This document shows positions 9,034 through 42,425 of a stretch of 64,000 nucleotides of DNA, piece by piece (the first letter of the stretch is position 1; each line of letters opens with the position of its first letter). Location: contig JANOEP010000016.1 in assembly GCA_031441465.1 (NCBI GenBank), forward strand, positions 96,001 to 160,000. The letters are read 5' to 3'. The notes under the pieces were generated by a model. The model was not told the origin of the DNA. It saw only the letters and a program-made list of their open reading frames with translations, and ran no database searches. The position numbers were made by a program, and so were the translations under genes. This stretch comes from a bacterium (GTDB taxonomy: Bacteria; Krumholzibacteriota; Krumholzibacteriia; LZORAL124-64-63).

Positions 9034-9144
9034 TAAAGTTACAGACACCCATCTATTGTGCAGCGGCATTGCATGATAGCCGGAGGCGTCGGCAGGCACA
9101 AAATATAGCTTGCAAATCGGGAAACAATTCCCATACTGCAAGTC

Positions 9145-24700: not shown

Positions 24701-24734
24701 TCTGTCTGGAAGTGACTCGACCGCGGGAGTGCCC

Positions 24735-25700
24735 ATGATGCCGAACCGCGGCGCGACCGCGCCGGAGCCGGCCCGCCGTCGTCCGCGACCGTGGGGGGAT
24801 CCCCTGTTCCGCAGTCTCGCCGCGGCGGCTGCCGGGATCTTTCTGGTGCTGACCGCGGCGATCTGCCTGGAGTTGGTGCGCGGATCGGCGCTCTCGCTGG
24901 CGAAGTTCGGCCCCGGGTTCCTGTGGAGCGCGTCCTGGAATCCGGTGACCCAGGACTTCGGCGCGCTCTCCTCGATCGCCGGCACGCTGGTCTCCACGCT
25001 TATCGCGATGCTGCTGGCCGTGCCGCTGTCGCTCATCATCGCGCTGTTCCTGGTCGAGCTGGCCCCGCCGGCGATCTCGAAGCCGGTGGGCGCGGCCATC
25101 GAGCTGCTGGCGGCCGTGCCCAGCATCATCTACGGCATGTGGGGCCTCTTCGTGTTCGCGCCGTTCATGTCCGACCACATCCAGCCCTTCCTGTCGTCCC
25201 GCTTCGGCTGGCTGCCCCTGTTCAAGGGCCCGCCCATGGGCATCGGCCTGCTCACGGCGGGCATCATCCTGGCCCTGATGATCCTGCCTTTCATCACCTC
25301 GGTGATGCGCGACGTCCTGCGGATGGTCCCGCCCGTGGTGAAAGAGGCGGGCTACGGCATGGGCAGCACCGTCTGGGAAGTGGCCCGCAAGGTCACCGTG
25401 CGCTACGGCGTGCGCGGCATGGCCGGCGCCTGCCTGCTGGGCCTCGGCCGCGCGGTGGGCGAGACGATGGCCGTGACCTTCGTCATCGGCAACGACCACC
25501 GCGTGAGCGCGTCGCTCTTCGCCGCCGGCAACTCCATCGCCTCGGCCCTGGCCAACGAGTTCGCCGAGGCGTCCGAACCCCTGTACCTCTCGGCGCTGGT
25601 CGAACTGGGCCTGGTGCTCTTCCTGATGACCTTCGCCATCCAGGGCCTGACCCACGCCTGGATCCGGCGCCTGGAGCGCAGCGCGGGGAGGGGGCTCTGA
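24735..25700 (+). CDS. pstC: Phosphate ABC transporter permease
   Basis: ELLAAVPSIIYG, LGRAVGETMAV, LANEFAEA. Confidence 0.95.
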   Translation: MMPNRGATAPEPARRRPRPWGDPLFRSLAAAAAGIFLVLTAAICLELVRGSALSLAKFGPGFLWSASWNPVTQDFGALSSIAGTLVSTLIAMLLAVPLSLIIALFLVELAPPAISKPVGAAIELLAAVPSIIYGMWGLFVFAPFMSDHIQPFLSSRFGWLPLFKGPPMGIGLLTAGIILALMILPFITSVMRDVLRMVPPVVKEAGYGMGSTVWEVARKVTVRYGVRGMAGACLLGLGRAVGETMAVTFVIGNDHRVSASLFAAGNSIASALANEFAEASEPLYLSALVELGLVLFLMTFAIQGLTHAWIRRLERSAGRGL

Positions 25701-26542
25701 TGGAGCGCCGCGACGCCCGTGGCCGCAAGGCCGTCGACTTCGCGGTGCGCACGGCCGCGAGCCTCGCCGCGCTGCTCGGCATCGGCGCGCTGATCTGGAT
25801 CCTCACCGAGGTTGTCCGTCGCGGCGCGCCCGCGCTCAATCCCGCCTTCTTCACTGCCCTGCCCGGCCCGCCCGGCGTCGCCGGGGGTGGCCTGGCCAAC
25901 GCCATCCTGGGCACGATGGCGCTCACGGTCGCGGCGACCGCGGTCGGTGTGCCCCTGGGCATGCTCGCCGGCGTCTACCTGTCGGAGTTCGGGCGCGACA
26001 CGCGCCTGGGCGCGGCGGTGCGCTTCTGCGTGAACGTGTTGATGGGCCTGCCCTCGATCCTGGTGGGCCTGTTCGTTTGGACCGTGCTGGTGGTGCCTTT
26101 CCGCAGCTTCTCCGGCTACGCCGGCGCCACGGCGCTGGCGCTGATCATGCTGCCGGTGGTCGCCCGCACCACTGAGGACATGCTGTCGCTGGTGCCGCAC
26201 GCCCTGCGCGAGGGGGCGCTGGCCCTGGGCACGCCGCGCTGGCGCACCACCCTGATCGCCTTCAAGGCGGCCCGCGGTGGTCTGATCACCGGCGTGCTGC
26301 TGGCCGTGGCCCGCGTCAGCGGCGAGACCGCGCCGCTGCTGTTCACGGCCCTGAACAGCCCCTTCTGGCCCCGGTCGATGTCCGAGCCCGTCGCCAACCT
26401 GACGGTCACCGTCTTCCAGTACGCCATGTCGCCCTACGCCGACTGGCAGGCCAAGGCCTGGGGCGCCTCGCTGCTGATCATGGCCGCCGTGCTGACCACC
26501 TCGCTGCTGGCGCGCACCTTCGCCAGGGAGAGAACGCGATGA
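25700..26542 (+). CDS. pstA: Phosphate ABC transporter permease
   Basis: [36 protein letters not shown] coupling. Confidence 0.95.
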
Positions 26543-27390
26543 ACGCCACGTCCCCAGAGTCCCCGCTTTCGGCGCTGCCGTTCGCCGCGCCCCGTCCCCG
26601 CGCCGTCGACCGACCCGGCGACCCCGAGGGATCCGTGCCGCCGAAGATCTCGGTCCGCGGCTTGAACTTCTACTACGGCAAACAGCAGGCCCTCTTCGGC
26701 AACGACCTCGACGTCGCGACCAACCGCGTGACCGCGGTCATCGGCCCCTCCGGCTGCGGCAAGTCGACGCACCTGCGCGTCTACAACCGCATCTACCAGC
26801 TCTACCGCGACCAGCGCGCCGAGGGGAGCGTCGTGCTCGACGGCGAGGACCTGCTGTCGCCGACCACCGACCTCATCGAACTGCGGCGCAAGGTCGGCAT
26901 GATCTTCCAGAAGCCGACGCCCTTCCCCATGAGCGTCTACGAAAATGTGGCCTACGGCCTGAAGCTGCACTACAGTCTGTCGAAGAGCGGGCTGGCCGAG
27001 GCCGTCGAGAAGGCCCTGCGCGGCGCCGCGCTCTGGGACGAGGTCAAGGATGCGCTCGATCGCCCGGGCACGGCACTCTCCGGCGGCCAGCAGCAGCGGC
27101 TCTGCATCGCACGCGCGATCGCGGTGCGCCCCGAGGTGCTGCTCATGGACGAACCCACTTCGGCCATCGACCCGGTCGCCACGGCCAAGATCGAGGACCT
27201 GATCGAGGAGCTGAAACGGGAGTTCACGATCGTCATCGTGACGCACAACATGCAGCAGGCGGCGCGCGTCTCGGACTACACGGCCTTCTTCTTCGAGGGC
27301 CGCATCGTCGAGTTCGGGGCCACGCAGCAGATCTTCACGAAGCCGGTGCACCGCCAGACCGAGGATTACATCACGGGCCGGTTCGGGTAG
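26539..27390 (+). CDS. pstB: Phosphate ABC transporter ATPase
   Basis: [52 protein letters not shown]. Confidence 0.97.
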
Positions 27391-27406
27391 CCCGGGGGAG
27401 TGGAGC

Positions 27407-28114
27407 ATGTCCGTTCATCTCAGACGCGCGATCGAGCAGCTCAAGGAACAGGTGCTGGCCCTCAGCGCGACGGTCGAAGAAGCCGTCTGGCTGGCGGTGC
27501 GCGCCGTGCAGGAGCACGACCCGGCCCTGGCCCGCAGCGTGCTGGCGGGCGACCGCGCCATCGACGAGTGCGAGGTGCGGGTCGAGGAGGAGTGCCTGAA
27601 GATCCTGGCGCTGCACCAGCCGGTGGCCAGCGACCTGCGCTTCCTGGTGACGGTCCTGAAGATCACCAACGACCTCGAGCGCATCGGCGACCTCGCCGTG
27701 AACATCGCGGAACGCGCCATCTACCTGGCGTCCCGCGAGGAAGCGCCGACCACCTTCGACTTCGTGGGCATGGCGACCCGGACGCAGGAGATGCTGCACA
27801 CCGCGCTGGACGCCCTGGTCAACGTCGACCCGGTGCGTGCACGGGACGTCTGCGCCATGGACGACGAGGTCGACGCCATCAACCGCGGGATGTACGGGCA
27901 GGTGCAGGCGGGGATCCGCGAGCGCCCCGCGCAGGCGGACTTCTACCTCCAGCAGCTATCCATCTCCCGACAGCTCGAGCGCATCGCCGACCACGCGACG
28001 AACATCGCCGAGGACGTCATCTACATGTCCGAGGGGAGGGTCGTGCGGCACCACGTCGAGGAATTCCGCGTGCCGGAAAGGGGCGCGGCTCCGGAGCCGC
28101 CCGCCGCCGATTGA
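27407..28114 (+). CDS. phoU: Phosphate signalling complex protein PhoU
   Basis: QPVASDLR, DLERIGD, LERIADHATNIAE. Confidence 0.95.
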   Translation: MSVHLRRAIEQLKEQVLALSATVEEAVWLAVRAVQEHDPALARSVLAGDRAIDECEVRVEEECLKILALHQPVASDLRFLVTVLKITNDLERIGDLAVNIAERAIYLASREEAPTTFDFVGMATRTQEMLHTALDALVNVDPVRARDVCAMDDEVDAINRGMYGQVQAGIRERPAQADFYLQQLSISRQLERIADHATNIAEDVIYMSEGRVVRHHVEEFRVPERGAAPEPPAAD

Positions 28115-28271
28115 GCGCGGCCGGGCACCCCGCCCGCGAGCCCCCGGACCCCCGCCCTGTACGAACCCGGACGGATGTGCTAGCTTCCCGCCCGCGCGCA
28201 CCCGCACCGGCGCCTGCTGGTTGGCGCGCAACCGGTCGGCGTCCGGAATCGGCGCGGCATTCCCGGCGGTG

Positions 28272-30011
28272 ATGATGACCCACAAGACAACCGTGCTGGT
28301 GTTGCTCGCAACGCTGGCTTCCGCGCCGGCGCTCGGCGCCGAAGACGCGTCGCGGGGCGGGCGCGTCGGCGACCGGCTGCGGCAGCGGCTCGAGGCGGTC
28401 CCGGCGGGGTCGGTCGTGACGGCGCTCGGCGAGCCCCTGCACCGCGGCGATCTCGTTCTGCGCTTCTACCAGGGCCGCGACTACGCTCCAGCCTGGACCG
28501 GCGACCGCGGCCCCCTGGCCGTGGCCGATTCGCTGGGCGCGGCGCTCGCCGGCCTCGACGCCGACGGCCTGCAGCTCCGCGACTACCATCCCGACGCGCT
28601 CGCCCAGGGCCTCGCCCGCCTGCACGACCGACGGTGGTGGCGAACCAGCCCCGATCCGGGAGATCTCGCCGAACTCGATCTGCTGGCGACCGACGCCTAC
28701 CTGCTCGCCGCGACCCAATGCCTGGGCGGCCGCTTGGACCCGCGAGCCTTCGACCCCGACTGGATCGCCGAGCGCCGCTCCGCCGACGTGGTCGCGGTGC
28801 TGTCGGGAGCCCTGGCCGCCGACGAGATCGGCGGCTCGCTACACCGGTTGCTGCCCGCGCAGCCCGAGTACGCCCGGCTGCGGCGCGCGTTCGCGCAGCA
28901 CCGTGCCCTCGCCACGGTGGGCGCCTGGCCGGTCGTGCCGGCCGGCGACAAGCTCGAGCCCGGCGATCTCGACTCCCGCGTGCCCTTGCTGCGGGCGCGC
29001 CTCGCGGCCGCGGGCGACCTCGCCCCGGGCAGCGCCCTGAGTCCCGACCCCGAGTACTACGACGAGGACCTCGCCGCCGCGGTCCGCCGGTTCCAGACCC
29101 GATTCGGTCTCGATCAGGACGGGGTGATCGGCCAGGCCACGCAGGCCGAACTCGGCGCTTCGGTCGAGGACCGCATCCGGCAGATCCGGGTGAATCTCGA
29201 GCGCTGGCGCTGGTTGCCGGCGGATCTCGGCCACCGTCGCGTCGAGGTCAACATCCCCGATTATCGGCTCCAGGTGCTCCACGGAGACAGCGTGGTGCTC
29301 GCCATGCCCGTCATCGTCGGCCTCCCGACGCGGCGCACGCCGGTCTTCAGCGCGAAGCTGAACTCGCTGGTGTTCAGTCCCGACTGGGAGGTCCCGCCCA
29401 AGCTCGCGATCGAGGACAAGCTCCCGCTGATCCAGCAGGATCCCGGCTACCTCCAGGAATTCGGCTTCGAGGTGATCGCGGGCTGGGGGGAGAAGGCGAC
29501 GGTGGTCGACCCCGCCGGTGTGGAGTGGGGCAACGTGCCGGCCGGCAGTTTCCCGTACCGACTGCGCCAGCTGCCGGGCCCGCTCAACGCGCTCGGGCTG
29601 GTGAAGTTCAACTTGCCGAACCGCTTCAACGTGTACCTGCACGACACGGCGAATCGGGGTCTCTTCGCGCGGGCGAAGCGCGCCTTCAGCGCCGGCTGCG
29701 TCCGCATCCAGAAGCCCGAGGAATTCGCGGTCTACCTGCTGACCGGCGACGTTCGTTGGCCGCGCTCGCGCATCGCCGAGGCCATGGCTTCGGGCCGCGA
29801 GCAGGCCGTGCGCCTGCCCGCGCCGATCCCGATCCACCTGCTGTACTGGACGGCGTGGGTCGACCGGCAGGGGTCGATCGTCTTCCGCCCCGACATCTAC
29901 CAGATCGACAACCTGACCGCGGCGGCCCTCGAGGCTCCCTACCAGTGGATCGTGGAGCTGAAGCCGCCCCCGGACAACGCCGTTCCCAAGGACGTGATCG
30001 CCGTCCCGTAG
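28272..30011 (+). CDS. L,D-transpeptidase, YcbB/LdtD-like, with peptidoglycan-binding domain
   Basis: AVRRFQ..GL..DG, NLERWRW, VNIP, RQLPGPLNALG, YLHDT...FSAGCVR catalytic His/Cys. Confidence 0.9.
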   Translation: MMTHKTTVLVLLATLASAPALGAEDASRGGRVGDRLRQRLEAVPAGSVVTALGEPLHRGDLVLRFYQGRDYAPAWTGDRGPLAVADSLGAALAGLDADGLQLRDYHPDALAQGLARLHDRRWWRTSPDPGDLAELDLLATDAYLLAATQCLGGRLDPRAFDPDWIAERRSADVVAVLSGALAADEIGGSLHRLLPAQPEYARLRRAFAQHRALATVGAWPVVPAGDKLEPGDLDSRVPLLRARLAAAGDLAPGSALSPDPEYYDEDLAAAVRRFQTRFGLDQDGVIGQATQAELGASVEDRIRQIRVNLERWRWLPADLGHRRVEVNIPDYRLQVLHGDSVVLAMPVIVGLPTRRTPVFSAKLNSLVFSPDWEVPPKLAIEDKLPLIQQDPGYLQEFGFEVIAGWGEKATVVDPAGVEWGNVPAGSFPYRLRQLPGPLNALGLVKFNLPNRFNVYLHDTANRGLFARAKRAFSAGCVRIQKPEEFAVYLLTGDVRWPRSRIAEAMASGREQAVRLPAPIPIHLLYWTAWVDRQGSIVFRPDIYQIDNLTAAALEAPYQWIVELKPPPDNAVPKDVIAVP

Positions 30012-30012
30012 G

Positions 30013-31383
30013 CTAGGTCTCGCGGCTCCGTCCGTCGCTGCCCAGCAGGACGGCGACCGCCAGCGTCGCCGTGATCAGCGGCGCCGTCCGGTTGCCGAGT
30101 CCCGTCTCGGCCAGACCCACCAGCAACAGCCCGACCAATCCGGCGGCGACCCCCCAGGCCACCGACGTCCGGGACAACCCGGCGTCGCCTGCGACGGCGC
30201 CGACCGCGGGGCGCCGTGCCGTCCGCCAGGCCGCGACCGCGGCGGCGACCAGGGAGGCCAGGGCGAGCAGCGCCGCGGGTAGGCCCAGGCGCCGCGCCAG
30301 CTCCAGGGGGATGCTGGGGGCGAAGGCCTCGGCGCCCTCGCCGGTCAGCGGGTGCGCGGCGATCGCGCCGAACGATTCGCGCCAGGCCGGCACGCGCGTG
30401 GAGAAGAAGTCCCCGGCCAGGGAAGCCCGCAGCTTGTAGGCGAAGGAGTCGCCCGCCAACTCGGGCCGCAGCACGAGCACGATCGCGACGGCGCCCAGCG
30501 CCGCCAGCGCGATCAGCGGTGCGCGCAGACGCCGCCGGTCGCCGGTCAGGGCCGTCGCGATGACGAGGACCGCCGCGGTCGCCGCCAGGCTGCCCATCGC
30601 GCCGCGCGAGGCGGTCAGGGGCAGGCAGGCCGCGGCCGCGAGCCAGGCGAGGGCGCCGGCCAGGCGCCAGCGGCGGCCGGAATCGCCGAGCCAGAGGGCC
30701 AGGCCCAGCGGCGCGAAGAACGCCAGGTGCACGGCCAGGCCCACCGAGCCGCGGTAGAAGGAGCCCGGCTCCTCGTCCGACTTGCCGGCGATCGCCAGCA
30801 GAAACTCCGCGATACCCCCCACCGCCAGCAGGACCACCGCTCCCAACGTGGCGGCCGTCCACCAGACCGGCAGTCCGGGCTGTCGGTCGCCGTCGTCGGT
30901 CAGCAGCAGCGGGATGCACCCGGCCAGCCAAAGCAGGCGGACGCCCCGCAGCCAGGTCGCACTCGCGGGGCCGCCGCCCGGTCCGGCCGCCAGGGCGACG
31001 AAGCCGAACGTGGCTACCAAGCCGACCGCGGCGAAGGCGAGCCACAGCAGGATCGCCGGTGCCGGCCGGACCCAGGGACGCGGCGCGAGCGCGCGGCGCG
31101 CCAGCCACCAGGCCGCCGCGGCGAGCAGCACGACCTCGGTGGCGTAGATCTCGCGACCAGGGGTCAGGAAGAAGAAGTCGAGCAGGGGGCCGACCGGGAT
31201 GATCGCCGCGACCGGCAGGCGCGGCCGCGGCTGTGCGAACCAGGCCAGCGCGCCGACGCCGAGCAGCAGCAGCGGCAGCCTTCCCGACGAGGTTGCGCCC
31301 GCGCCGGCCAGCGCACCGACCAGCAGGGCCAGGCAGAGCAGGGCGCCGAGCGTCGCGGGCGCCACGCGCAGGATGCGGCTCAC
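30013..31383 (-). CDS. O-antigen ligase/Wzy-like membrane protein
   Basis: About 12 TM helices; LTASRGA and R...W...HPLTGEG motifs. Confidence 0.65.
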   Translation of the reverse strand: MSRILRVAPATLGALLCLALLVGALAGAGATSSGRLPLLLLGVGALAWFAQPRPRLPVAAIIPVGPLLDFFFLTPGREIYATEVVLLAAAAWWLARRALAPRPWVRPAPAILLWLAFAAVGLVATFGFVALAAGPGGGPASATWLRGVRLLWLAGCIPLLLTDDGDRQPGLPVWWTAATLGAVVLLAVGGIAEFLLAIAGKSDEEPGSFYRGSVGLAVHLAFFAPLGLALWLGDSGRRWRLAGALAWLAAAACLPLTASRGAMGSLAATAAVLVIATALTGDRRRLRAPLIALAALGAVAIVLVLRPELAGDSFAYKLRASLAGDFFSTRVPAWRESFGAIAAHPLTGEGAEAFAPSIPLELARRLGLPAALLALASLVAAAVAAWRTARRPAVGAVAGDAGLSRTSVAWGVAAGLVGLLLVGLAETGLGNRTAPLITATLAVAVLLGSDGRSRET

Positions 31384-31766
31384 GGCGTCACCTCCCGGTC
31401 CCGGTCCTGATCCCCGTCACGCGGCGGCGATCCTCGGCGGCGCGGTGGGAAGCGCCGGGCCAGGTAGCAGCCCAGGGCCAGGCCCACGAGACCGGCGGTG
31501 ACGTCCAGGGCCAGGTCGACGCCGGGCGGCCGGATGTACTCGACGCGCGTCTTGGCGAAGACGTCGAACAGCTCCTTGCCCGCGATCAGGGCGACGGCCA
31601 GCAGCACGACCCGCCGCAGCGGCAGCACGCGCGAGGCGCCCCAGGCGATCGCGGCCGCGAAGACCAGGTGGAAGAACCAGTCCACCGGCACGCCCAGCAC
31701 GCGCATCTTGCTGAAGAATTCCAGTCCGCCGCGGATCTCCCGCAGTACATCCAGGACCTGCTCCAT
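31380..31766 (-). CDS. Small membrane protein (VanZ/YfiM-like motif)
   Basis: DWFFH...GKELFD...DVTAG pattern; GGGAGG upstream; GTGA coupling to the next gene. Confidence 0.55.
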   Translation of the reverse strand: MEQVLDVLREIRGGLEFFSKMRVLGVPVDWFFHLVFAAAIAWGASRVLPLRRVVLLAVALIAGKELFDVFAKTRVEYIRPPGVDLALDVTAGLVGLALGCYLARRFPPRRRGSPPRDGDQDRDREVTP

Positions 31767-32007
31767 GCCTCGACCCTCCCGGGTTGGGTCGGCGCGCCCG
31801 ACCGGCGGGCATGATAGCAGCGATCCCGACGTCACGACAGTCCCGAACCAGCCCCGACCCGTCCCGGACAAATCCGCGGTCGACCTCCGAAAAGGCTGTT
31901 GACTTTCCCACACACGCATATAGTTTGACGCAACTCGCGAGGGTGTCGCCGGGATCGGCGTCCACCGGGATCGCGGGTCCGTGCTCGTGCCCAGGGAGGG
32001 ATACCAC

Positions 32008-33375
32008 ATGCGCCGCTGCCCCACGTCCGCCCGCAGCGACCACAGCGTCGACGCCGTCGTGGCCGTCGAGCGAGAGGAGGAGCGCTCCGAGGAGCCTCCT
32101 TCCCCATCCGTCAACGTCGCCGACGTTCAGTTCGCCCCTGAACCGACCACCTTTCCTCCTGGAGCGCCGGGTGGATTTTTTTATCCCCACAAGGGAGCGA
32201 GGGTCGGAGAGCGCACGCGCGAATTCCGCCGGGCCTTCTTCCCCGAGGCGACCAGCGCCGAGTGGAATGACTGGCACTGGCAGCTGCGCAACCGCGTCCG
32301 CACCTTCGAGCAGTTCGACCGCATGCTCTCGCTGTCGCCGGCCGAACGGCTGGCGCTGCAGCGCGACGGTAGCATGCTGCCGGTGGCGGTGACCCCGTAC
32401 TACATGAGCCTGCTCGACCCTGCCAACCCGCAGCAACCCCTGCGGCGCACCGTCGTGCCGACCCAGGCCGAGCACCTGCGCATGCCGGGCGAGGCCGACG
32501 ATCCCCTGGGAGAGGATAGCCACAGCCCGGTGCAGGGCATCGTGCACCGCTACCCGGACCGCGTCCTGTTCCTGGTGCACGACTTCTGCCCCACCTACTG
32601 CCGCTACTGCACCCGGTCGCGCCTGGTGGGCCACGGTGAATATTCGCCGAAGCAGGAGCAACTGGAGGCGCGGATCGACTACATCCGCCGCACGCCGGCG
32701 GTCCGCGACGTGCTGCTGTCGGGCGGCGAGCCCCTGAGCATCGCCGACGACAAGCTGGACTGGATCCTCACGGAGCTGCGCCGCATCCCTCACGTGGAGA
32801 TCGTGCGCATCGGCACCAAGTCGCCCGCGGTGATGCCGCAACGCATCACGCCCGCGCTGGCCAAGATGCTGCGCAAACACCACCCGCTGCTGATGAGCAT
32901 CCACTTCCTGCACCCCGACGAGTGCACGCCGGAGTCGGCGACCGCCTGCGCGCGCCTGGCCGACGCCGGCATCCCGCTCGGCTCGCAGACGGTGCTGCTC
33001 AAGGGCGTCAACGACGACGTCGAGACCATGAAGCGCCTCATGCAGAACCTGCTCATGATGCGCGTGCGCCCGTACTACCTGTACCAGTGCGACCCCATCT
33101 CCGGGTCGTCGCACTTCCGCACGACGGTCGCCAAGGGCCTCGAGATCATCCAGGGCCTGCGCGGCTGGACCACCGGCTACGGGGTGCCGACCTACGTGAT
33201 CGACGCTCCCGGCGGCGGCGGCAAGATCCCCCTGCAGCCGGACTACCTGATCGGCCGCGAGGGAGAGGACGTCGTGCTGCGCAACTTCGAGGGCCGGCAG
33301 TACCGCTACCCCGACCCCCGCGGACGCGGCGCCGCCAAGCTGGAGAAAGCCCGGAGCCCCCGGCGCAAGTCCTGA
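32008..33375 (+). CDS. KamA-family radical SAM/PLP enzyme (lysine 2,3-aminomutase-like)
   Basis: WNDWHWQ, DPLGE, HRYPDR, CPTYCRYCTR (CxxxCxxC), PYYLYQCD, YVIDAPGGGGKIP (PLP lysine); AGGGAGG RBS. Confidence 0.92.
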   Translation: MRRCPTSARSDHSVDAVVAVEREEERSEEPPSPSVNVADVQFAPEPTTFPPGAPGGFFYPHKGARVGERTREFRRAFFPEATSAEWNDWHWQLRNRVRTFEQFDRMLSLSPAERLALQRDGSMLPVAVTPYYMSLLDPANPQQPLRRTVVPTQAEHLRMPGEADDPLGEDSHSPVQGIVHRYPDRVLFLVHDFCPTYCRYCTRSRLVGHGEYSPKQEQLEARIDYIRRTPAVRDVLLSGGEPLSIADDKLDWILTELRRIPHVEIVRIGTKSPAVMPQRITPALAKMLRKHHPLLMSIHFLHPDECTPESATACARLADAGIPLGSQTVLLKGVNDDVETMKRLMQNLLMMRVRPYYLYQCDPISGSSHFRTTVAKGLEIIQGLRGWTTGYGVPTYVIDAPGGGGKIPLQPDYLIGREGEDVVLRNFEGRQYRYPDPRGRGAAKLEKARSPRRKS

Positions 33376-33393
33376 CACCGCAGTCCCGACGGA

Positions 33394-33426
33394 ACCGCGC
33401 CCGGAGGCACGACCTCCGGGCGCGGT
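33394..33426. repeat. Intergenic 14-bp perfect hairpin (REP-like or mRNA stabiliser)
   Basis: ACCGCGCCCGGAGG-CACGA-CCTCCGGGCGCGGT; no U-tract. Confidence 0.6.
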
Positions 33427-33453
33427 CACGGCGCACCAGCCGGGGGAGCCAGC

Positions 33454-34488
33454 ATGCACGTCGGCCTGACCTACGACCTGCGCGACGACTACCTCGCCGC
33501 CGGTTACGGCGAGGAGGAGACCGCGGAGTTCGATCGCATCTCCACGGTCGAGGCGCTCGAGGGGGCCCTGCGCGCGGGCGGCCACCGCACCGAACGCATC
33601 GGCAACGCGGCGCGGCTCGCCCGCCTGCTGACGGTCGGCCGGCGCTGGGATCTCGTGTTCAACATCGCCGAGGGCCTGCACGGCATCGGGCGCGAGGCCC
33701 AGGTGCCGGTCCTGCTCGAGCTGTACGGCATCGCCTACACCTTTGGCGACCCCCTGACGATGTCCCTGACCCTGCACAAGGGCATGACCAAGCGCGTCCT
33801 GCGTGACGCCGGCCTGCCGACGCCCGCGTTCGCCGAGGTGGCGCGGCTCGAGGACCTCGCCGGCGTCGATCTGCCGTACCCGCTGTTCGCCAAGCCGATC
33901 GCCGAGGGCACGGGCAAGGGCGTCGACGGCGCCTCGAAGCTGCGCACGCCGCAGGAGCTGGCCGAGCGCTGCCGGTCGCTGCTGGAGCGGTTTCGCCAGC
34001 CCGTGCTGGTCGAGACGTTCCTGCCGGGGCGCGAACTCACCGTCGGGATCGTGGGCACCGGGGACGAGGCGCGCGTGGTGGGCACCATGGAGGTGGTCCT
34101 GCTGCCGCAGGCTGAGGCCGACGCCTACACCTACGTCAACAAGGAGCGCTGCGAGGAGCTGATCGAGTACCGCTTCCCGGACGCCGCCGCCGATCCCCAA
34201 GTGGCGACGGCCGAGCGCACCGCGCTCGCGGCCTGGCGCGTGCTGGGCTGCCGCGACGCCGGGCGGGTCGACCTGCGGGCCGACGCGAGGGGCGAGCCCC
34301 AGATCATGGAACTCAACCCCCTGGCCGGCCTGCATCCCGAACATTCGGACCTGCCGATGATCGCCACGGCCAGGGGCCTGCCCTACGCCGACCTCATCGA
34401 CATCATCGTCCGGTCGGCCGCGGTGCGCCGCGGCGAAATTCCCCCGCTGCGCGCGGAGCTGCTCCATGCGGATCCTGATCCTGCATAA
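33454..34488 (+). CDS. D-Ala-D-Ala ligase-like ATP-grasp protein 1
   Basis: VFNIAEG, KPIAEGTGKG, ETFLPGRELTV, GRVDLR, ELNPLAG; lacks the canonical GGxSxE N-terminus. Confidence 0.85.
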   Translation: MHVGLTYDLRDDYLAAGYGEEETAEFDRISTVEALEGALRAGGHRTERIGNAARLARLLTVGRRWDLVFNIAEGLHGIGREAQVPVLLELYGIAYTFGDPLTMSLTLHKGMTKRVLRDAGLPTPAFAEVARLEDLAGVDLPYPLFAKPIAEGTGKGVDGASKLRTPQELAERCRSLLERFRQPVLVETFLPGRELTVGIVGTGDEARVVGTMEVVLLPQAEADAYTYVNKERCEELIEYRFPDAAADPQVATAERTALAAWRVLGCRDAGRVDLRADARGEPQIMELNPLAGLHPEHSDLPMIATARGLPYADLIDIIVRSAAVRRGEIPPLRAELLHADPDPA

Positions 34489-35461
34489 CGCGGTCGCCGC
34501 CGACGCGGCGCCCGACGAGCGCGACGTCCTGGACCAGGTCGCGGCGGTCGCGGAAGCCCTCGCGCGCCTGGGCCACGAGCCCGACGCCCTGGGCTGCGAC
34601 CTGGACCTGCCGGAGCTGGGCGACCGCCTCGTCGATGTGCGTCCCGACCTCGTGTTCAACCTCGTGGAGAGCCTGGGCGGCGAGGGCCGCCTCATCCATG
34701 TCGTGCCCGCCCTGCTGGACGCGCTGGGCGTGCGCTACGCCGGCTGCCCGTCCGAGGCCATGTTCACCACCTCGCACAAGATCCTCGCCAAGCAGCTGCT
34801 GGCCGGCGCCGGCCTGCCCACGCCCGCCTGGTACGAGCTGCGCCGCGGCCGGCTCGTCGCCGCCGGCGGCGGCGTTTCGGCGCCCGCGCGCTGCCTGGTG
34901 AAGTCGGTGTGGGAGGACGCGTCCCTGGGCATGGACGACGACGCGGTGGTGGCCGCCGATCCGGCGACCCTGCGCTCGGCCCTCGCGGCGCGAGCCGGCC
35001 GTCCCGGCGCCCCGTGGTTCGCCGAGGCTTTCGTCGACGGCCGCGAGTTCAACCTCTCGGTGCTCGACGGCCCCGACGGCCCGCAGGTGCTGCCGCCGGC
35101 CGAGCTGACCTTCGTCGACTACCCGCCGGACAAGCCGCGCATCGTGGGCTACGCCGCGAAGTGGGACGAGGGCTCCTTCGAGTACTCCCACACCGTGCGC
35201 ACCTTCGACCTCGCGCCCGCCGACGCGCCGCTGCTGGCGCGCCTGCGGGAGCAGGCCCTGGCCTGCTGGGACCTGTTCGGCCTGCGCGGCTGGGCCCGAG
35301 TCGATTTCCGCGTGGACGCCGCCGGCGAGCCTTGGATCCTCGAGGCGAACGCCAATCCCTGCCTGTCCGCGGACGCCGGCTTCCAGGCCGCCGTCGCCCG
35401 CGCGGGCCTGACCTTCGACGACGCGGTCGCGCGCATCCTCGCGGCCGTAACCGGAGCGTGA
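34466..35461 (+). CDS. D-Ala-D-Ala ligase-like ATP-grasp protein 2
   Basis: VFNLVES, KSVWEDASLG, EAFVDGREFN, YAAKW, ARVDFR, EANANPC; overlaps protein 1 by 23 nt. Confidence 0.85.
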   Translation: MRILILHNAVAADAAPDERDVLDQVAAVAEALARLGHEPDALGCDLDLPELGDRLVDVRPDLVFNLVESLGGEGRLIHVVPALLDALGVRYAGCPSEAMFTTSHKILAKQLLAGAGLPTPAWYELRRGRLVAAGGGVSAPARCLVKSVWEDASLGMDDDAVVAADPATLRSALAARAGRPGAPWFAEAFVDGREFNLSVLDGPDGPQVLPPAELTFVDYPPDKPRIVGYAAKWDEGSFEYSHTVRTFDLAPADAPLLARLREQALACWDLFGLRGWARVDFRVDAAGEPWILEANANPCLSADAGFQAAVARAGLTFDDAVARILAAVTGA

Positions 35462-35466
35462 TCGCG

Positions 35467-35970
35467 ATGACGACCCCTACCGAGTTCCGCACCGAGACCC
35501 GCCCGGCCGACGTCGCGGCCGTCCGCGACTTGGCCGCGGCCACCGCCTACTTCTCCCCGTCGGAGGTGGCGATCGCCGCCGAGCTGGTCGAGGAGCGCCT
35601 ACAGAAGGGGCCGGCCAGCGGCTACGAGTTCCTCTACGCCGACGGCGCCGACCGTCTCGAGGGCTACGCCTGCTACGGCCTGATCCCCTGCACACTATCC
35701 AGCTACGACCTCTACTGGATCGCCGTGCAACCCGACACCCAGGGCAGCGGTCTGGGCCGCCGCATCCTGGAGGACTGCGAGCACCGCATCCGCGCCTTCG
35801 GCGGCACGGCCGTCTACGCCGAGACCAGCGGGAAGCCCCAGTACGTCAGCACCCGGAAGTTCTACGAGCGGTGCGGGTACGACACGGGCGCGGTCTTCGC
35901 AGACTTCTACGGGCCCGGGGACGACAAATACGTCTTCGTCAAGAAACTGGGCGTGGTATCCCCGTCGTGA
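35467..35970 (+). CDS. GNAT family N-acetyltransferase
   Basis: YDLYWIAVQPDTQGSGLG (acetyl-CoA motif A), AETSG, FYERCGY, DFYGPGDDK; alternative GTG start at 35458. Confidence 0.88.
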   Translation: MTTPTEFRTETRPADVAAVRDLAAATAYFSPSEVAIAAELVEERLQKGPASGYEFLYADGADRLEGYACYGLIPCTLSSYDLYWIAVQPDTQGSGLGRRILEDCEHRIRAFGGTAVYAETSGKPQYVSTRKFYERCGYDTGAVFADFYGPGDDKYVFVKKLGVVSPS

Positions 35971-36085
35971 CAGGGGACGCGCGCCGGGCACCTCCTGTGC
36001 CCGGCGCGCTTGACCTCCAGGCCCCTTCGCCATCCTGGCTCCGGGGCCTTCCGGACACCCCTGTCACGACGGGGATGACACGCCC
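35949..36085. repeat. Y-shaped inverted-repeat element (MITE/REP-like or structured RNA)
   Basis: 19-bp perfect IR ATCCCCGTCGTGACAGGGG (35958-35976) / CCCCTGTCACGACGGGGAT (36058-36076), extendable by 7 bp, enclosing two hairpins. Confidence 0.65.
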
Positions 36086-36188
36086 GAGACAATAGACGCC
36101 CACGCAGCCGCTTGATACACCTGAACGTCCCCAACTGAAGTATCATGATGCGGGTGGTGGGTTGATTGCACCCTTGGAAGGACGCACG

Positions 36189-38846
36189 ATGAATCTCCGC
36201 CGTAGTATGGTCCTGGTCGCCTTGGTCTGCGCCTGCGCGGCATGGGGTGAGCCGGCGAACGCCGCCGTCGCGGATCTGCCGGACGAGGTGTTCTACCACA
36301 TCATGCCGATCGCTTGGCGGGACGGGAACAACGATGCGCAGCGGTTCGGGGACTTCGGTGGGCTGACGGCGTCGCTGCCGTACCTGCAGGGCCTCGGCGT
36401 GACGGCGATCTGGCTCAACCCGATCTTCCCGTCGCCCGCCTACCACGGCTACCAGCACGGGCCGGCTGATCAGCTCAACCCGTGGTTCGGGAACGAGGCC
36501 CAGCTGGTGTCGTTCCTGGAGGCGGCCCACGCCGCCGGCCTGAAGGTCTTCGTGGACTTCGTGGCCTACGGCATCAGCCGCGACGCGGTCTACTTCCAGG
36601 ACGCCTACGCGAACCCGTCCAGCGTCTACGACACCTGGTTGGCCTTCACCAACGCGGCCAACACGCAGTACCAGGGCTCGACCTTCACCACCTGGAACGG
36701 GGCCACGGTGCGGCAGATCTGGTGGGACCTGCGCGACCCCGGACCGGTTGGACTAGTCACGCAGTGGGCGCAGCACTGGCTCGACCCCGACGCCGACGGC
36801 GACTTCGGCGACGGCCTGGACGGCTACCGCCTCGACCACGTCTGGTCGACCTACCCCAACGGCACCGGTGGCTGGGGCTACCACATCGGCTCGTTCTGGG
36901 CCCCCTGGCGCGCGGCGCTGCGCGCGGTCAACCCCGACGTGGTCGTCTTCGCCGAGCAGGCCGACTGGGGCAGCTACGGCACCGACCTGTTCCCCGGGAT
37001 GGACGCCGCCTTCACCAAGCCCTTCGAGTTCGCCGCCCGCGACGCCCTGAGCTGGGAGGACGCCGGCCCGCTGTACTCGTCGATGTCCGCCACGGTCGCC
37101 GCCCGCGACGCGGCCGCGGTCGAGGGCACCTTCCTCTGCACGATCGGCAACCACGACGTCGGCCGCCTGGCCACCTCGATCGGCGATTCGTTCGCCAAGG
37201 GCAAGGCCGCCGCCGCCGTCCTGCTGACCCAGCCCTTCGCCCCGAACCTGTACTACGGCGACGAGATCGGCATGCGCGGCGCCAAGAACACGGGCTACGC
37301 GGGCGACGCCGCCGACATCCCCATGCGCGAGCCCTTCAAGTGGAACGCCGTGGCCGGCCCGCCGATGAGCAACTACTTCGTGCTGAACGCGGCCGCCTAC
37401 ACGGGGCGCATCTCGCAGAACAACGACGGCCGCAGCGTCGCCGAGCAGCAGGGCGTCTCCGGCTCCCTGCTGGAGGCCTACCGCGGGCTGATCGCCGCCC
37501 GCAGGGCCAGCGTCGCCCTGCGCCGCGGCGGCTACGCGCCGGTGACGGCGAGTGTGGCCTCCGTCTGGTCCTTCGTGCGCGACCACGCGGACCAGCAGGT
37601 CCTGGTCGCGATCAACGTGAGCGGCTCGTCGCGCTCACTCAGTCTGGACCTAGGCGATTTCGCGATCGCCGGCGGCGCGACCACCCCGACGGACCTGCTG
37701 ACCGGCGCGACGCTGCCCGCGCTCACCGACGCCAACAAAGGCGCCTACCCGCTGACTCTCGGCGCCTACGGCTACCGGCTGCTGCAGGTCGCGGTGACCG
37801 CTCCAGAGCCGCCGGCGAGCCTGCTGGACGGCCTCGCCGTGGCGAACCTCGCGCCGCCGCTGGCCCTCCAGGACACGCCGACCAACCTGGGCGACAACGT
37901 CTCGGAGCTGGACCGGCTGTTCGCCCGCGTCGCGGGCGATTCGCTCTTCGTCGGGCTGACCGGCAACCTCGCCACCGACGGAACCGGCCTCTGCCTGCTG
38001 CTGGACACCGCGCCCGGCGGCCAAATGGTCCTGGATCTCGGCGGCGTGCCCGTCCCGCCCAGCGGCCCCGAGCAGCTGACCGGGCTGCGCCTGGACGCGG
38101 GCTTCGCGCCGGACCAGCTGCTGTTCGTCAACGCCTACGCCGGCAACGTCTACGTGGACCAGTACACCCTGCCGGCGGGCGGCGGCGCCGTGAAGACCTA
38201 TCGTGGTGCGGGCGTCGTCGGCAGCGGCGGCGGCCTGCTGGCGGGCGGCGACAACCCCGATGGGATCCAGGTCGCGCTGGACAACCGCAACACCGCCGGC
38301 GTCACCGCGACCAGCGCGGCCGCGGCGGCCACCGCCGTCACCGGCTTCGAGATCTACCTGCCCGCGCTCAGCGTGGGCCTGGTGCCCGGCGAGGGCGCGG
38401 CGCCGCAGCTGGCGGCCTTCCTACTGCGGACCGACGGCGCGGTCACCAACCAGTGGCTGCCCGGACTGGGCGGCACGCTGACGGAGCCCGGCCTCGCACC
38501 GGACCTGGCCGACTACCCCGGCGACCAGTTCGTCGCCCTGCCGGCCGCCACCGCCGTGCCCGACACCGCCCCGTCGGTCTTCGGTCTGCGCGTCGAGCGG
38601 AACGCCGGTGCGGACACCGAGTTCTGGTTCCGCCTGCCCGAGGCCGCGGTCGCCCGCCTGGAGATCATCGATCTGCGCGGCCGCCGCGTGCGCACGCTGC
38701 TGGCCGGACCGGCCGTCGCGGGCGAGCAGATGGTCGCCTGGGACGGCGCCGACGACCGCGGGTCCCGCCAGCCGGGCGGGCTCTACCTGGCCAAGTTGAC
38801 GTCGGAGGGCCGCAGCGAGGTGCGGCGGGCGGTGCTGGTGCGGTGA
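36189..38846 (+). CDS. Secreted GH13 alpha-amylase family protein with FlgD-Ig/T9SS-like C-terminal domain
   Basis: Signal peptide; IWLNP..YHGY, DGYRLD, FAEQ, NHD, YYGDEIG; C-terminal IIDLRGRRVRTL..WDGADD.G..GLY. Confidence 0.9.
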   Translation: MNLRRSMVLVALVCACAAWGEPANAAVADLPDEVFYHIMPIAWRDGNNDAQRFGDFGGLTASLPYLQGLGVTAIWLNPIFPSPAYHGYQHGPADQLNPWFGNEAQLVSFLEAAHAAGLKVFVDFVAYGISRDAVYFQDAYANPSSVYDTWLAFTNAANTQYQGSTFTTWNGATVRQIWWDLRDPGPVGLVTQWAQHWLDPDADGDFGDGLDGYRLDHVWSTYPNGTGGWGYHIGSFWAPWRAALRAVNPDVVVFAEQADWGSYGTDLFPGMDAAFTKPFEFAARDALSWEDAGPLYSSMSATVAARDAAAVEGTFLCTIGNHDVGRLATSIGDSFAKGKAAAAVLLTQPFAPNLYYGDEIGMRGAKNTGYAGDAADIPMREPFKWNAVAGPPMSNYFVLNAAAYTGRISQNNDGRSVAEQQGVSGSLLEAYRGLIAARRASVALRRGGYAPVTASVASVWSFVRDHADQQVLVAINVSGSSRSLSLDLGDFAIAGGATTPTDLLTGATLPALTDANKGAYPLTLGAYGYRLLQVAVTAPEPPASLLDGLAVANLAPPLALQDTPTNLGDNVSELDRLFARVAGDSLFVGLTGNLATDGTGLCLLLDTAPGGQMVLDLGGVPVPPSGPEQLTGLRLDAGFAPDQLLFVNAYAGNVYVDQYTLPAGGGAVKTYRGAGVVGSGGGLLAGGDNPDGIQVALDNRNTAGVTATSAAAAATAVTGFEIYLPALSVGLVPGEGAAPQLAAFLLRTDGAVTNQWLPGLGGTLTEPGLAPDLADYPGDQFVALPAATAVPDTAPSVFGLRVERNAGADTEFWFRLPEAAVARLEIIDLRGRRVRTLLAGPAVAGEQMVAWDGADDRGSRQPGGLYLAKLTSEGRSEVRRAVLVR

Positions 38847-40184: not shown

Positions 40185-42425
40185 TTAATGATCTTCAATA
40201 AATACAACTAGTTGCGACATTGCAGCCGCTGCGGTTGGGTCCGTGCCGGCGAGCGCCCGCAGGCGCGCCAGGTCCCGTGACGCCGCCGCCGGATCCCGGA
40301 AATCGGGGTGCCGGGCCCGCAGCAGACCGCTCGCCAGGACCAGTTCGACCCGCCACGGCGGAGCGGCCGCGTCGTAGCGCGCCAGGAAGTGGTCGAGCAC
40401 GGCCAGGCCCGGATGATCTGCGCTGCGGATGTCGTGCGCCGAAGCCTCCGCGAGCAACCGCGCCGCCCGGGCGACGACGTCCTCGACCCGCCGCCGCTCC
40501 GCCGCCTCGAAGCTCCAGGGATCCTGCCGCCGGAAATACGAGTCGAGGCGCATCCCCGCCAGCAGGTCGGCCGCCGCCAGCGCCTGCTCCCGCAGCGAGG
40601 AAGCGTCACCTTTCGGCACGACCAGCCAGACGAAGCCGTGCGGCACCAGTTCGTACCGCAGCTGGAAGCTCGGCTCCTTCTCGCCGATGACTGCGACGGG
40701 CCGCCGCGGCGTCAGGTGGTCGAACCAGAACAGGTTCACCGAGCCCGGCAGGCCGCTGTAGCGGTCGGCGCTTTCTTGTCGCAGCCCGCCGGGGTTCATC
40801 GCCGCCCATTCCCGCGCGAACACTTCGACGGCCGGCAGGTCGCGCTCGATCCCCGCGACCTGCGCCTGCGGCAGCGTGCGCCAGCCCGCGGTCGTCAGCA
40901 GGGCGAGGTCGCCGTCGCCCCGGTCGGCGAGGCGGCCCCCGAGCACGCTCCTGTCGGTCAGCCGGACGCGGTCGGCGCGATCCAGCGGCGGCAGCAGGTC
41001 GGGCCGGCGCCGTCGCAGGCCGCGCACGTACCAGTCGTGGGTCATCAGCTCCTGGTCGGCCCAGGCCACGTCGGGGCGCTCCCCGCGCACGAAGGTCTCG
41101 TAGGCGAGCGCGTTGTGCAGGACGTCGCCCCGCACGAAGAGCGCGGCGTCGGGCGGCACACTGAGCAGGAGGTTGTGCGCGAGGTCGGCGTTGAACGTGT
41201 TGCCGCGCTGGTCGACCGCGCCGGCGTTGACCAGCAGCGCCGCGGCGACGGCCGTCGCGCCCATGGGCAGGGCCGCGCGCGGGAGGCGCCGGGCGAGCGC
41301 CTCCAGACCGAACCCCGCGCACAGGGCCACCGCGAATGCGGGCAGCGCGTGGAAGCGCTCGACCACGCCGCGCAGGTAGGCCGGCTCAGTCGGGAAACCG
41401 ATCCGCATGAAGAACAGCAACTGCAGGGCGAAGAAGGCGACCAGCACGGCGAGCAGGGAGCGCGCGCCGGGCCGGCCGCGCCGCGCGCGCACCGCCAGGT
41501 CGGTCAGACCGGCGACGGCCAGGACCGCGCCGAGATAGCCGAAGGCGCGGGGCAGCCCGGCCAGCCAGAGCAGCGCCTGGGAGCGGTCGGCCGTGTACCC
41601 GGCGGCCCGGGCGTCCAGCGACAGCGTCCCGTAGTCCATGCGCAGCAGGTGGTGGAACAGGCCGCGCCAGGACGCCGTGTTGCCCCAGGCGATGGCCGGG
41701 TCGCCGGACGGCAGGACCTTCAGCGCCAGCAGCGGCAGCAGGCAGACCAGCGCGATCGCCGCCGCCGCCAGCAGCGCGCGACCGGCGGGCGGCGCGACGC
41801 GCGGCTCCCGTCTCCACGTTCGCCAGGCGATCGCGGCCGTGGCCGCGTCGACGGGCACGGCCAGCAACAACAGGGTGTGGTGGTGGGAGAGGGCCAGGAC
41901 CGTCAGGCCGAGCAGAGCCAGCAGGCGCCTTCCCAACCGATGTCCCTCGGCGGTCACGACGCCGGCGAACACCCACAGCATCGCCGCGGCCAGCAGGCTG
42001 TTCAGGGCGAAGACCTCGGCGACCAGCGACATCTTCCAGGCCGGCGCGCAGAAAGCCCACAGCAGCGCGACGCACACCGCGACGGTCGAACGCATCCCCA
42101 GGCGCCGCGCCGCCGCCGCCAGGAAGCCGGCGGCCAGGCCGTGCGCCACGGCGGACAGCAGCGCCAGGCTCGTCGCGGGTTCGCCGAGCGGGACCAGGCG
42201 CAACCAGAGGTGGCCCAGCAGCGTGTACAGGGGATAGCCGGGTGGGTGCGCGACGCCGAGCCGGTCGGCGACGGCGATCAGCTCGCCGCTGTCGCCGGCG
42301 GGCAGGGTGCGCTGCAGCGTCGCGAGGGCCGCGGCGAGGGCCGCCGCGGCGGTGAGAAGCGCGACGCCCGCTCCCTGGAGGGGGCGGGCGCCGTCGAGGA
42401 TGTTCCGTGCTACGGACCTGCGCAT
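40185..42425 (-). CDS. DUF2723/TMEM260-like membrane protein (putative protein O-mannosyltransferase, GT-C)
   Basis: GDSGEL...GVAHPPGYPLY, AEVFAL, HHHT, WG....G...H..R.DYG. Confidence 0.82.
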   Translation of the reverse strand: MRRSVARNILDGARPLQGAGVALLTAAAALAAALATLQRTLPAGDSGELIAVADRLGVAHPPGYPLYTLLGHLWLRLVPLGEPATSLALLSAVAHGLAAGFLAAAARRLGMRSTVAVCVALLWAFCAPAWKMSLVAEVFALNSLLAAAMLWVFAGVVTAEGHRLGRRLLALLGLTVLALSHHHTLLLLAVPVDAATAAIAWRTWRREPRVAPPAGRALLAAAAIALVCLLPLLALKVLPSGDPAIAWGNTASWRGLFHHLLRMDYGTLSLDARAAGYTADRSQALLWLAGLPRAFGYLGAVLAVAGLTDLAVRARRGRPGARSLLAVLVAFFALQLLFFMRIGFPTEPAYLRGVVERFHALPAFAVALCAGFGLEALARRLPRAALPMGATAVAAALLVNAGAVDQRGNTFNADLAHNLLLSVPPDAALFVRGDVLHNALAYETFVRGERPDVAWADQELMTHDWYVRGLRRRRPDLLPPLDRADRVRLTDRSVLGGRLADRGDGDLALLTTAGWRTLPQAQVAGIERDLPAVEVFAREWAAMNPGGLRQESADRYSGLPGSVNLFWFDHLTPRRPVAVIGEKEPSFQLRYELVPHGFVWLVVPKGDASSLREQALAAADLLAGMRLDSYFRRQDPWSFEAAERRRVEDVVARAARLLAEASAHDIRSADHPGLAVLDHFLARYDAAAPPWRVELVLASGLLRARHPDFRDPAAASRDLARLRALAGTDPTAAAAMSQLVVFIEDH

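Follow-up and report, generated by a model that had tools for sequence, protein, structure and literature searches.

A four-gene cassette on the forward strand of a 64,000-nucleotide (nt) window, the whole stretch of Krumholzibacteriota DNA that was analysed, encodes a lysine 2,3-aminomutase (KamA), two ATP-grasp ligases that resemble D-alanine–D-alanine ligase (Ddl), here named lig1 and lig2, and a small N-acyltransferase of the GNAT family. The cassette is probably a small-molecule pathway, in which lysine is converted to beta-lysine, passes through two amide ligations and is then N-acetylated. The window has a G+C content of approximately 72% and is part of contig C16, in an assembly of 3.49 Mb that is 96.8% complete. 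The enzyme families themselves are known; the gene combination and its product appear to be new. A literature search of article full texts found no description of the kamA-lig1-lig2-GNAT gene set. Passages of PMC3543383 and PMC11201294 treat the plain AblA/AblB pair. A Klebsiella paper on CfmP concerns a TupA-like ATP-grasp protein and is irrelevant to the cassette.

The first gene, kamA (32008..33375), encodes a 455-amino acid protein of the radical S-adenosylmethionine (SAM) and pyridoxal phosphate (PLP) type. Scanned against Pfam and NCBIfam profile models with curated cutoffs, it matches Pfam Radical_SAM (PF04055) and LAM_C and passes the subfamily model TIGR00238 with 341.5 bits against a cutoff of 199.2. 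The best equivalog is the AblA-type lysine 2,3-aminomutase (TIGR03820), for which the score of 492.3 bits falls just below the cutoff of 525.4. The models of the glutamate type (425.7 vs 650), the arginine type (382.8 vs 600) and the EpmB type (239.9 vs 369.3) follow. The genome has no second gene of the KamA family.

Alignment to the Clostridium aminomutase structure 2A5H extends over residues 75-437 with 458.5 bits. The CxxxCxxC cysteines at positions 194, 198 and 201 align to Cys125, Cys129 and Cys132 of the structure, and Arg203, Asp362, Asp399 and Lys406 align to Arg134, Asp293, Asp330 and Lys337. In 2A5H, Lys337 is the PLP lysine, Arg134 binds the carboxylate, and Asp293 and Asp330 hold the epsilon-ammonium of lysine. 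The original prediction, made from the letters alone, had named these residues (the arginine of a CTR motif, two aspartates and the PLP lysine) and had argued for lysine as the substrate over the glutamate and EpmB types. The residues are present, including the two aspartates on which the argument for lysine was built, and the AblA model outscores the glutamate and EpmB models. KamA would convert lysine to beta-lysine. The N-terminal stretch of about 74 residues (32008-32229) falls outside the 2A5H alignment; its tblastn matches are confined to two loci of 93-94% identity (L009 and L011), and the matches in more distant loci were shorter. The ATG at 32008 is preceded by the Shine–Dalgarno sequence GGGAGG, and in-frame alternative GTG starts occur at 31981, 31987 and 32059.

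The two ligases, lig1 (33454..34488) and the more divergent lig2 (34466..35461), match in Pfam only the C-terminal domain of Ddl (PF07478), with 90.6 and 59.6 bits respectively, and the N-terminal domain PF01820 was undetected in both by the Pfam scan. On the Ddl model NF002378 they reach 140.1 and 100.6 bits against a cutoff of 243. Among solved structures, Ddl and VanA are closest to them. The AlphaFold (AF2) model of lig1, with a predicted local distance difference test score (pLDDT) of 93.4, finds its best fold match in Ddl structures at template modelling (TM) scores of 0.73-0.84. The residues were compared in an alignment of Escherichia coli DdlB and the Ddl of this genome with 78 sequences of lig1 and 62 of lig2, and are given here in DdlB numbering; invariant columns were computed from 42 lig1 sequences and, separately, from 43 lig2 sequences. 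The positions for ATP, magnesium and catalysis (K97, K144, E180, E187, K215, R255, D257, E270 and N272) are invariant in 78/78 lig1 and 62/62 lig2 sequences. Because the complete set is unchanged in both families, lig1 and lig2 should be active ligases.

In this they share the fold and the catalytic machinery of Ddl, whereas the substrate pocket differs. Residues H63, S150, Y216, S281 and L282, together with the GGxSxE N-terminal domain, are those that bind D-Ala in DdlB. H63 is replaced by Glu in every member of both families. S150 becomes Thr in lig1 and Ala in 57/62 lig2 sequences, Y216 becomes Glu in 75 of the 78 lig1 sequences and Trp in all 62 of lig2, and L282 becomes Asp (78/78) and Gly (62/62), respectively. 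S281 is kept throughout lig1 (78/78); in lig2 the position holds Ala in 44/62 and Ser in 15/62. In addition, G276 is exchanged for Cys in 59/62 lig2 sequences. In the numbering of the window's own lig1 protein the pocket consists of Glu73, Thr153, Glu231, Ser298 and Asp299, and lig2 carries Glu68, Trp233, Cys299 and Gly305. The earlier reading that both ligases are devoid of the D-Ala-binding N-terminal signature is therefore upheld by the missing PF01820 match and the replaced positions, and the translations contain the two differing EN motifs that it had listed, ELNPLAG in lig1 and EANANPC in lig2.

The genome's own Ddl retains H, S, Y, S and L at the five substrate positions. This canonical ddl, with all the substrate residues of DdlB, lies on another contig (C40), so that the outcome named beforehand as fatal, namely that the cassette genes are the only ddl genes, did not materialize. 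The cassette ligases are not the Ddl of the cell. Read against DdlB, the second site of lig1 would pair the anchor for a free carboxylate with a new acidic residue, an arrangement that fits beta-lysine as the acceptor, and the extra acidic residues of the first site may accommodate a cationic donor. The second site of lig2 appears to be roomier and devoid of the carboxylate anchor. A heterodimer of the two had also been suggested; the lig1-lig2 complex prediction (score 0.09, mark 0.32) is evidence neither for nor against it.

A joint function is supported by gene order. The survey of lig1 scanned one genome per species and confirmed 539 relatives; the neighbourhood counts refer to the best 80 loci, in which adjacent kamA, lig2 and GNAT genes were called by tblastn. 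In these 80 loci lig1 is accompanied by kamA in 67, by lig2 in 65, by the GNAT gene in 56 and by all three in 52, and several of the loci with fewer genes end at contig ends. The loci come from at least a dozen phylum-level labels. Record titles name Planctomycetota, Desulfobacterota lineages, Ignavibacteria, Bacteroidota, Spirochaetota, Acidobacteriota and Krumholzibacteria, and further titles name KSB1, Marinimicrobia, Gamma- and Alphaproteobacteria, Myxococcota and Dependentiae (L064). Individual carriers named in the titles include Melioribacter roseus, Thermogutta and Fuerstiella. Across the phyla, lig1 identity is 51-72%.

The order kamA-lig1-lig2-GNAT is the commonest (22 loci), followed by kamA-lig1-lig2-GNAT with a gene of about 580 codons inserted before the GNAT gene (17 loci). 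Six loci have this five-gene order with a small CxxCxxCC gene after kamA. Of the 52 complete loci, 50 have the ligases between kamA and the GNAT gene. As the gene order recurs across phyla, the association is far beyond chance, and the proposed check of neighbourhood conservation came out in favour of the unit. Clustering of open reading frames (ORFs) over the 80 loci gave no neighbour family from outside the cassette in more than 8 loci. The only recurring transporter and regulator candidates are a BT1/MFS-type transporter, divergent and upstream of kamA in 5/80 loci (L015 and four others), and a sigma-54 response regulator in 8/80 loci.

Fusions repeat the gene order. Among the best 120 of 298 longer lig1 relatives there are 92 lig1-lig2, 22 KamA-lig1 and 2 lig1-lig2-GNAT proteins; the rarer forms are one CxxC-lig1-lig2, one CxxC-lig1 and two with two lig1-like halves. 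Fusions of lig2 to the GNAT domain are found in a further count of 2/80 loci (L073 and L077). Since the fusions follow the gene order, the simplest order of the pathway is KamA, lig1, lig2 and GNAT.

Co-occurrence leads in the same direction. The sample consists of 41 related genomes, which are kin, so that the counts are not independent. A lig1 gene is present in 18 of them, and in 17 of these 18 it is joined by a KamA match at E <= 1e-99; the exception, a genome that is 83% complete, has its lig1 truncated at query position 8 and yielded no KamA. The 23 lig1-negative genomes contain no KamA at this threshold. Where lig1 has no adjacent kamA, a KamA-family gene was found elsewhere in 9/9 genomes, a weak result as the same model passes its cutoff in 7/14 control genomes. 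Through conserved order, fusions and KamA-lig1 co-occurrence, the four genes can be regarded as one functional unit around beta-lysine, as had been proposed.

The last gene (35467..35970) encodes the GNAT N-acyltransferase of 167 amino acids, with a QGSGLGRR acetyl-CoA motif and matches to Acetyltransf_7 (PF13508) and Acetyltransf_1 (PF00583). Its residues 6-157 match the Protein Data Bank entry 2R7H at E 1.3e-43. This entry, a “putative D-alanine N-acetyltransferase of GNAT family”, is a close relative, so that the family of the cassette GNAT has a solved structure. It is a structural-genomics entry for which no functional study was found in the literature, and its name appears to be an annotation guess.

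An aminomutase encoded with a GNAT recalls the AblA/AblB pair of methanogens and some bacteria, which makes N-epsilon-acetyl-beta-lysine as an osmolyte. It could be argued that the cassette is this known route and that the ligases are unrelated passengers. AblA is indeed the best equivalog model for KamA, and an aminomutase with a GNAT is what the AblA/AblB pair consists of. The KamA score, however, is under the AblA cutoff, and the GNAT is not of the AblB type: it has no match to the AblB model TIGR03827 and measures 167 amino acids against 266 model positions. No other protein in the 96.8% complete genome matches this model either, and the AblA/AblB route was rejected as the identity of the cassette. 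The ligases, moreover, occupy the space between kamA and the GNAT gene in nearly all full loci and occur in fusion proteins with KamA and with the GNAT, and there are kamA-lig1 units without a GNAT gene in the locus DNA examined. Of all the explanations considered, this one is the least probable.

Lysine fermentation (kamA-kamDE-kdd-kce) is a further known use of beta-lysine, and the original prediction had stated that its kamDE and kdd genes are missing. For kamD, the alpha subunit of beta-lysine 5,6-aminomutase (PF09043), the genome gave no match, a weak negative as the control was also silent. The 3-keto-5-aminohexanoate cleavage enzyme (BKACE, PF05853) likewise had no match in the genome. 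Lysine fermentation was set aside as the identity of the cassette.

The additional gene of the five-gene order encodes a protein of about 580 amino acids, in which a weak GNAT-like domain is fused to a deacetylase. It is inserted in 27/80 loci (in L013, for instance, at 7988-9745) and was not found in the genome of the window. The nearest solved relatives of the deacetylase are acetylpolyamine amidohydrolases (9gkz, E 6.2e-75), which are of the small-molecule type.

The pairing of GNAT and deacetylase also resembles prodrug or self-resistance logic. A rival reading takes the product to be a secondary metabolite with bioactivity: a cationic oligomer of beta-lysine, similar to the beta-lysine chain in streptothricins, that acetylation by the GNAT would render harmless within the cell and that the deacetylase, where one is present, would activate. 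Streptothricin acetyltransferases act on the beta-lysine amine. The acidic lig1 pocket (positions E63, E216 and D282) would fit cationic substrates at both sites, and the patchy distribution among relatives is in keeping with such a product. On the other hand, no exporter, immunity or regulator gene recurs in the 80 loci, and the degree of lig1 identity across phyla, along with the Dependentiae record, better fits a housekeeping-type metabolite. A secondary metabolite is for these reasons rather unlikely, although no rival is given more weight.

The relationship to Ddl raises a cell-wall role, in which the ligases would provide a beta-lysine dipeptide for the stem of peptidoglycan or for a different polymer of the envelope. 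The ligases have the Ddl fold and Ddl as their nearest relative, and two genes upstream in the window are of envelope type: an L,D-transpeptidase that carries Scaffold and PG-binding domains (27837-30011) and a Wzy_C O-antigen-ligase-like protein on the reverse strand (30013-31383). In the Kuenenia-type loci L026 and L029, the genes kamA-CxxCxxCC-lig1 are preceded by an MraY-like GT4 gene, and in L029 a DAO-family oxidoreductase gene lies downstream with a class IV aminotransferase gene further on. These wall-type neighbours are not conserved, however, and no neighbour family exceeds the 8 loci mentioned above. The canonical ddl is encoded elsewhere in the genome, no Mur-type ligase accompanies the cassette, and neither a deacetylase of the polyamine type nor a small GNAT belongs to the machinery of wall building. 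In addition, lig1 is missing from 7/24 genomes of the same family. An envelope function is accordingly considered unlikely. The reduced unit of the Kuenenia-type loci may represent a different use of the lig1 product.

A further rival places beta-lysine on a protein. An ATP-grasp ligase would attach it to a protein lysine, for example in elongation factor P (EF-P) of lineages without EpmA, with the GNAT and the deacetylase adjusting the modification. In E. coli, EF-P beta-lysylation is fed by the KamA-type enzyme EpmB, and some ATP-grasp enzymes, RimK for instance, act on proteins. In this genome no EpmA exceeded its cutoff (best TIGR00462 score 246.7 vs 286.9, in a 612-amino acid frame). A 2026 review (PMC13602936) places the EF-P type of about half of bacterial genomes outside the classes of known modification and describes many types as being without one.

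The EF-P tip loop is, however, KPGKG in 14/14 readable cassette-positive relatives and in 14/14 cassette-negative relatives. Two more positive genomes gave only spurious regular-expression hits, and 11 of the 41 genomes fall outside this comparison. With the loop alike in both groups, the type of EF-P is not tied to the cassette. The KamA score is 492 bits for the AblA type against 240 for the EpmB type, the deacetylase is of the small-molecule type, and lig1 keeps Ser281 in all 78 sequences, the anchor for the free carboxylate of a second substrate. The EpmA/EpmB system itself has in common with the cassette that a KamA-family enzyme supplies beta-lysine, which is ligated through its carboxylate. 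It differs in that EpmA is a paralogue of LysRS and not an ATP-grasp enzyme, and EpmAB was discarded as the identity of the cassette because of the EpmA result and the low EpmB-model score. Protein modification is very unlikely to be what the cassette encodes. Of the original proposal that beta-lysine is ligated and acetylated, the shared unit and the distinction of the ligases from Ddl thus hold, and the peptidoglycan and protein-modification variants gained no support.

In the small-molecule pathway that is preferred here, KamA would convert L-lysine to beta-lysine. The first ATP-dependent amide bond would be formed by lig1 via an acyl-phosphate. Its amine acceptor is probably beta-lysine, and as donor a further cationic amino acid would serve, which may again be beta-lysine. 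The second amide bond, formed by lig2, would lead to a bulkier partner that does not have the usual carboxylate anchor, and the remaining amine would be N-acetylated by the GNAT. This would yield an N-acetylated di- or tri-amide of beta-lysine, which may serve as a compatible solute or as a polyamine-like cation. In lineages with the acetylpolyamine-amidohydrolase-type gene, the acetyl group could be removed again. The substrates after beta-lysine, the order of the steps and the physiological role are inferred from the genes and their arrangement.

Systems with a similar logic are known. The Ngg/AsnO pathway, reportedly described by Sagot et al. in 2010, makes N-acetylglutaminylglutamine amide. 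It joins a GNAT and an ATP-grasp activity in the synthesis of an N-acetylated dipeptide solute and is the closest analogue of the proposed logic; it differs in ligase family and substrates, in having no known aminomutase and in the fusion of both domains in one protein. Two sequential ATP-grasp ligases, of which MysD is Ddl-like, act in the synthesis of mycosporine-like amino acids (MysC/MysD), and carnosine synthase is an ATP-grasp enzyme that activates a beta-amino acid. These last two are built on unrelated scaffolds, and neither is known to include a radical SAM aminomutase or a GNAT.

Several observations weigh against the pathway as described. The interpretation of the ligase pockets transfers residue roles of DdlB by alignment. 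Of the 16 loci without lig2 in the locus DNA examined, 9 have kamA or the CxxC gene next to lig1, among them the Kuenenia-labelled L016 and L026, and lig1 stands alone in 6. With lig1 alone or only with kamA in 15/80 loci, the four-gene product is not the sole output of the family; these loci have no common partner among their neighbours. The distribution is patchy, with lig1 in 17/24 genomes of the same family and 0/16 in other families of the class, and the function is therefore dispensable. A role as osmolyte or polyamine analogue is without direct support from the neighbourhoods, as no transporter, regulator or stress-linked neighbour recurs across the 80 loci. Many carriers' records bear the names of freshwater or wastewater taxa.

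The RNA evidence is to be read with the same reserve. Four RNA-library runs contain 7-16% of the sampled words, and contigs that are 92-99% alike extend over the greater part of the cassette; the longest stretch described, 34137-35638, lies on a single contig of 1502 nt. These contigs belong to relatives and may include DNA, and are no proof of transcription or of an operon transcript.

The four genes are co-directional and tightly packed, as first described: lig1 and lig2 overlap by 23 nt, and the GNAT gene starts 5 nt past the lig2 stop. The third-position G+C content (GC3) of kamA, lig1 and lig2 is 0.91-0.95. Between kamA and lig1 there is a gap of 78 nt, which holds a perfect, GC-rich hairpin of 14 bp on the forward strand (33396..33424). 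The spacer fold of 33370-33460 has a minimum free energy (MFE) of -47.1 kcal/mol (z -3.3), with 0/200 shuffles equally stable, and the hairpin occurs once in the window. In 3/4 RNA-library runs, the contigs of relatives skip a stretch of 56 nt that holds the hairpin (33381-33436), joining 33380 to 33437 exactly. It appears to be a small palindromic element whose insertion is strain-specific.

Nothing matched in an Rfam scan of 31000-36500 at E <= 1. The predicted fold of the 5′ leader (31935-32015) is no more stable than those of its shuffles (z 0.58), and no riboswitch-like leader was seen. The promoter scan found no sigma-70-like site; a TTGACT and TATAGT pair at approximately 31899-31924 has a spacer of 14 nt and does not qualify. 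The sole terminator-like match (32158-32171) is at chance expectation.

The flanking genes are functionally unrelated to the cassette. A small predicted membrane protein without a Pfam match is encoded divergently from kamA on the reverse strand (31380-31766). Downstream of the cassette are an alpha-amylase-family gene and, on the reverse strand, a gene for a TMEM260-like protein O-mannosyltransferase (40185-42425). The genes pstC/pstA/pstB/phoU (24729-28114) lie upstream by about 4 kb, and a PhoU_div and PHO4 pair follows the GNAT gene in the Smithella-labelled loci L075, L079 and L085. The presence of phosphate transport genes near the cassette in two unrelated lineages may be a coincidence.

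In bacteria and archaea, beta-lysine serves as an osmolyte precursor, a fermentation intermediate, a modifier of EF-P and an antibiotic building block. It is quite possible, if still tentative, that at least a dozen phyla make N-acetylated amides of the beta-lysyl-beta-lysine type through a Ddl-derived ligase pair, with GNAT and deacetylase balancing the free and acetylated forms. If this is true, these amides would be a new and widespread metabolite class of polyamine-like or protective character, and the Ddl fold would gain a new class of substrates. Thousands of “D-alanine--D-alanine ligase” annotations in these ligase families would receive a proper name. A fifth beta-lysine route, conserved across many phyla and in many lineages encoded as fused single proteins, would add a common and hitherto unseen metabolite to bacterial physiology.

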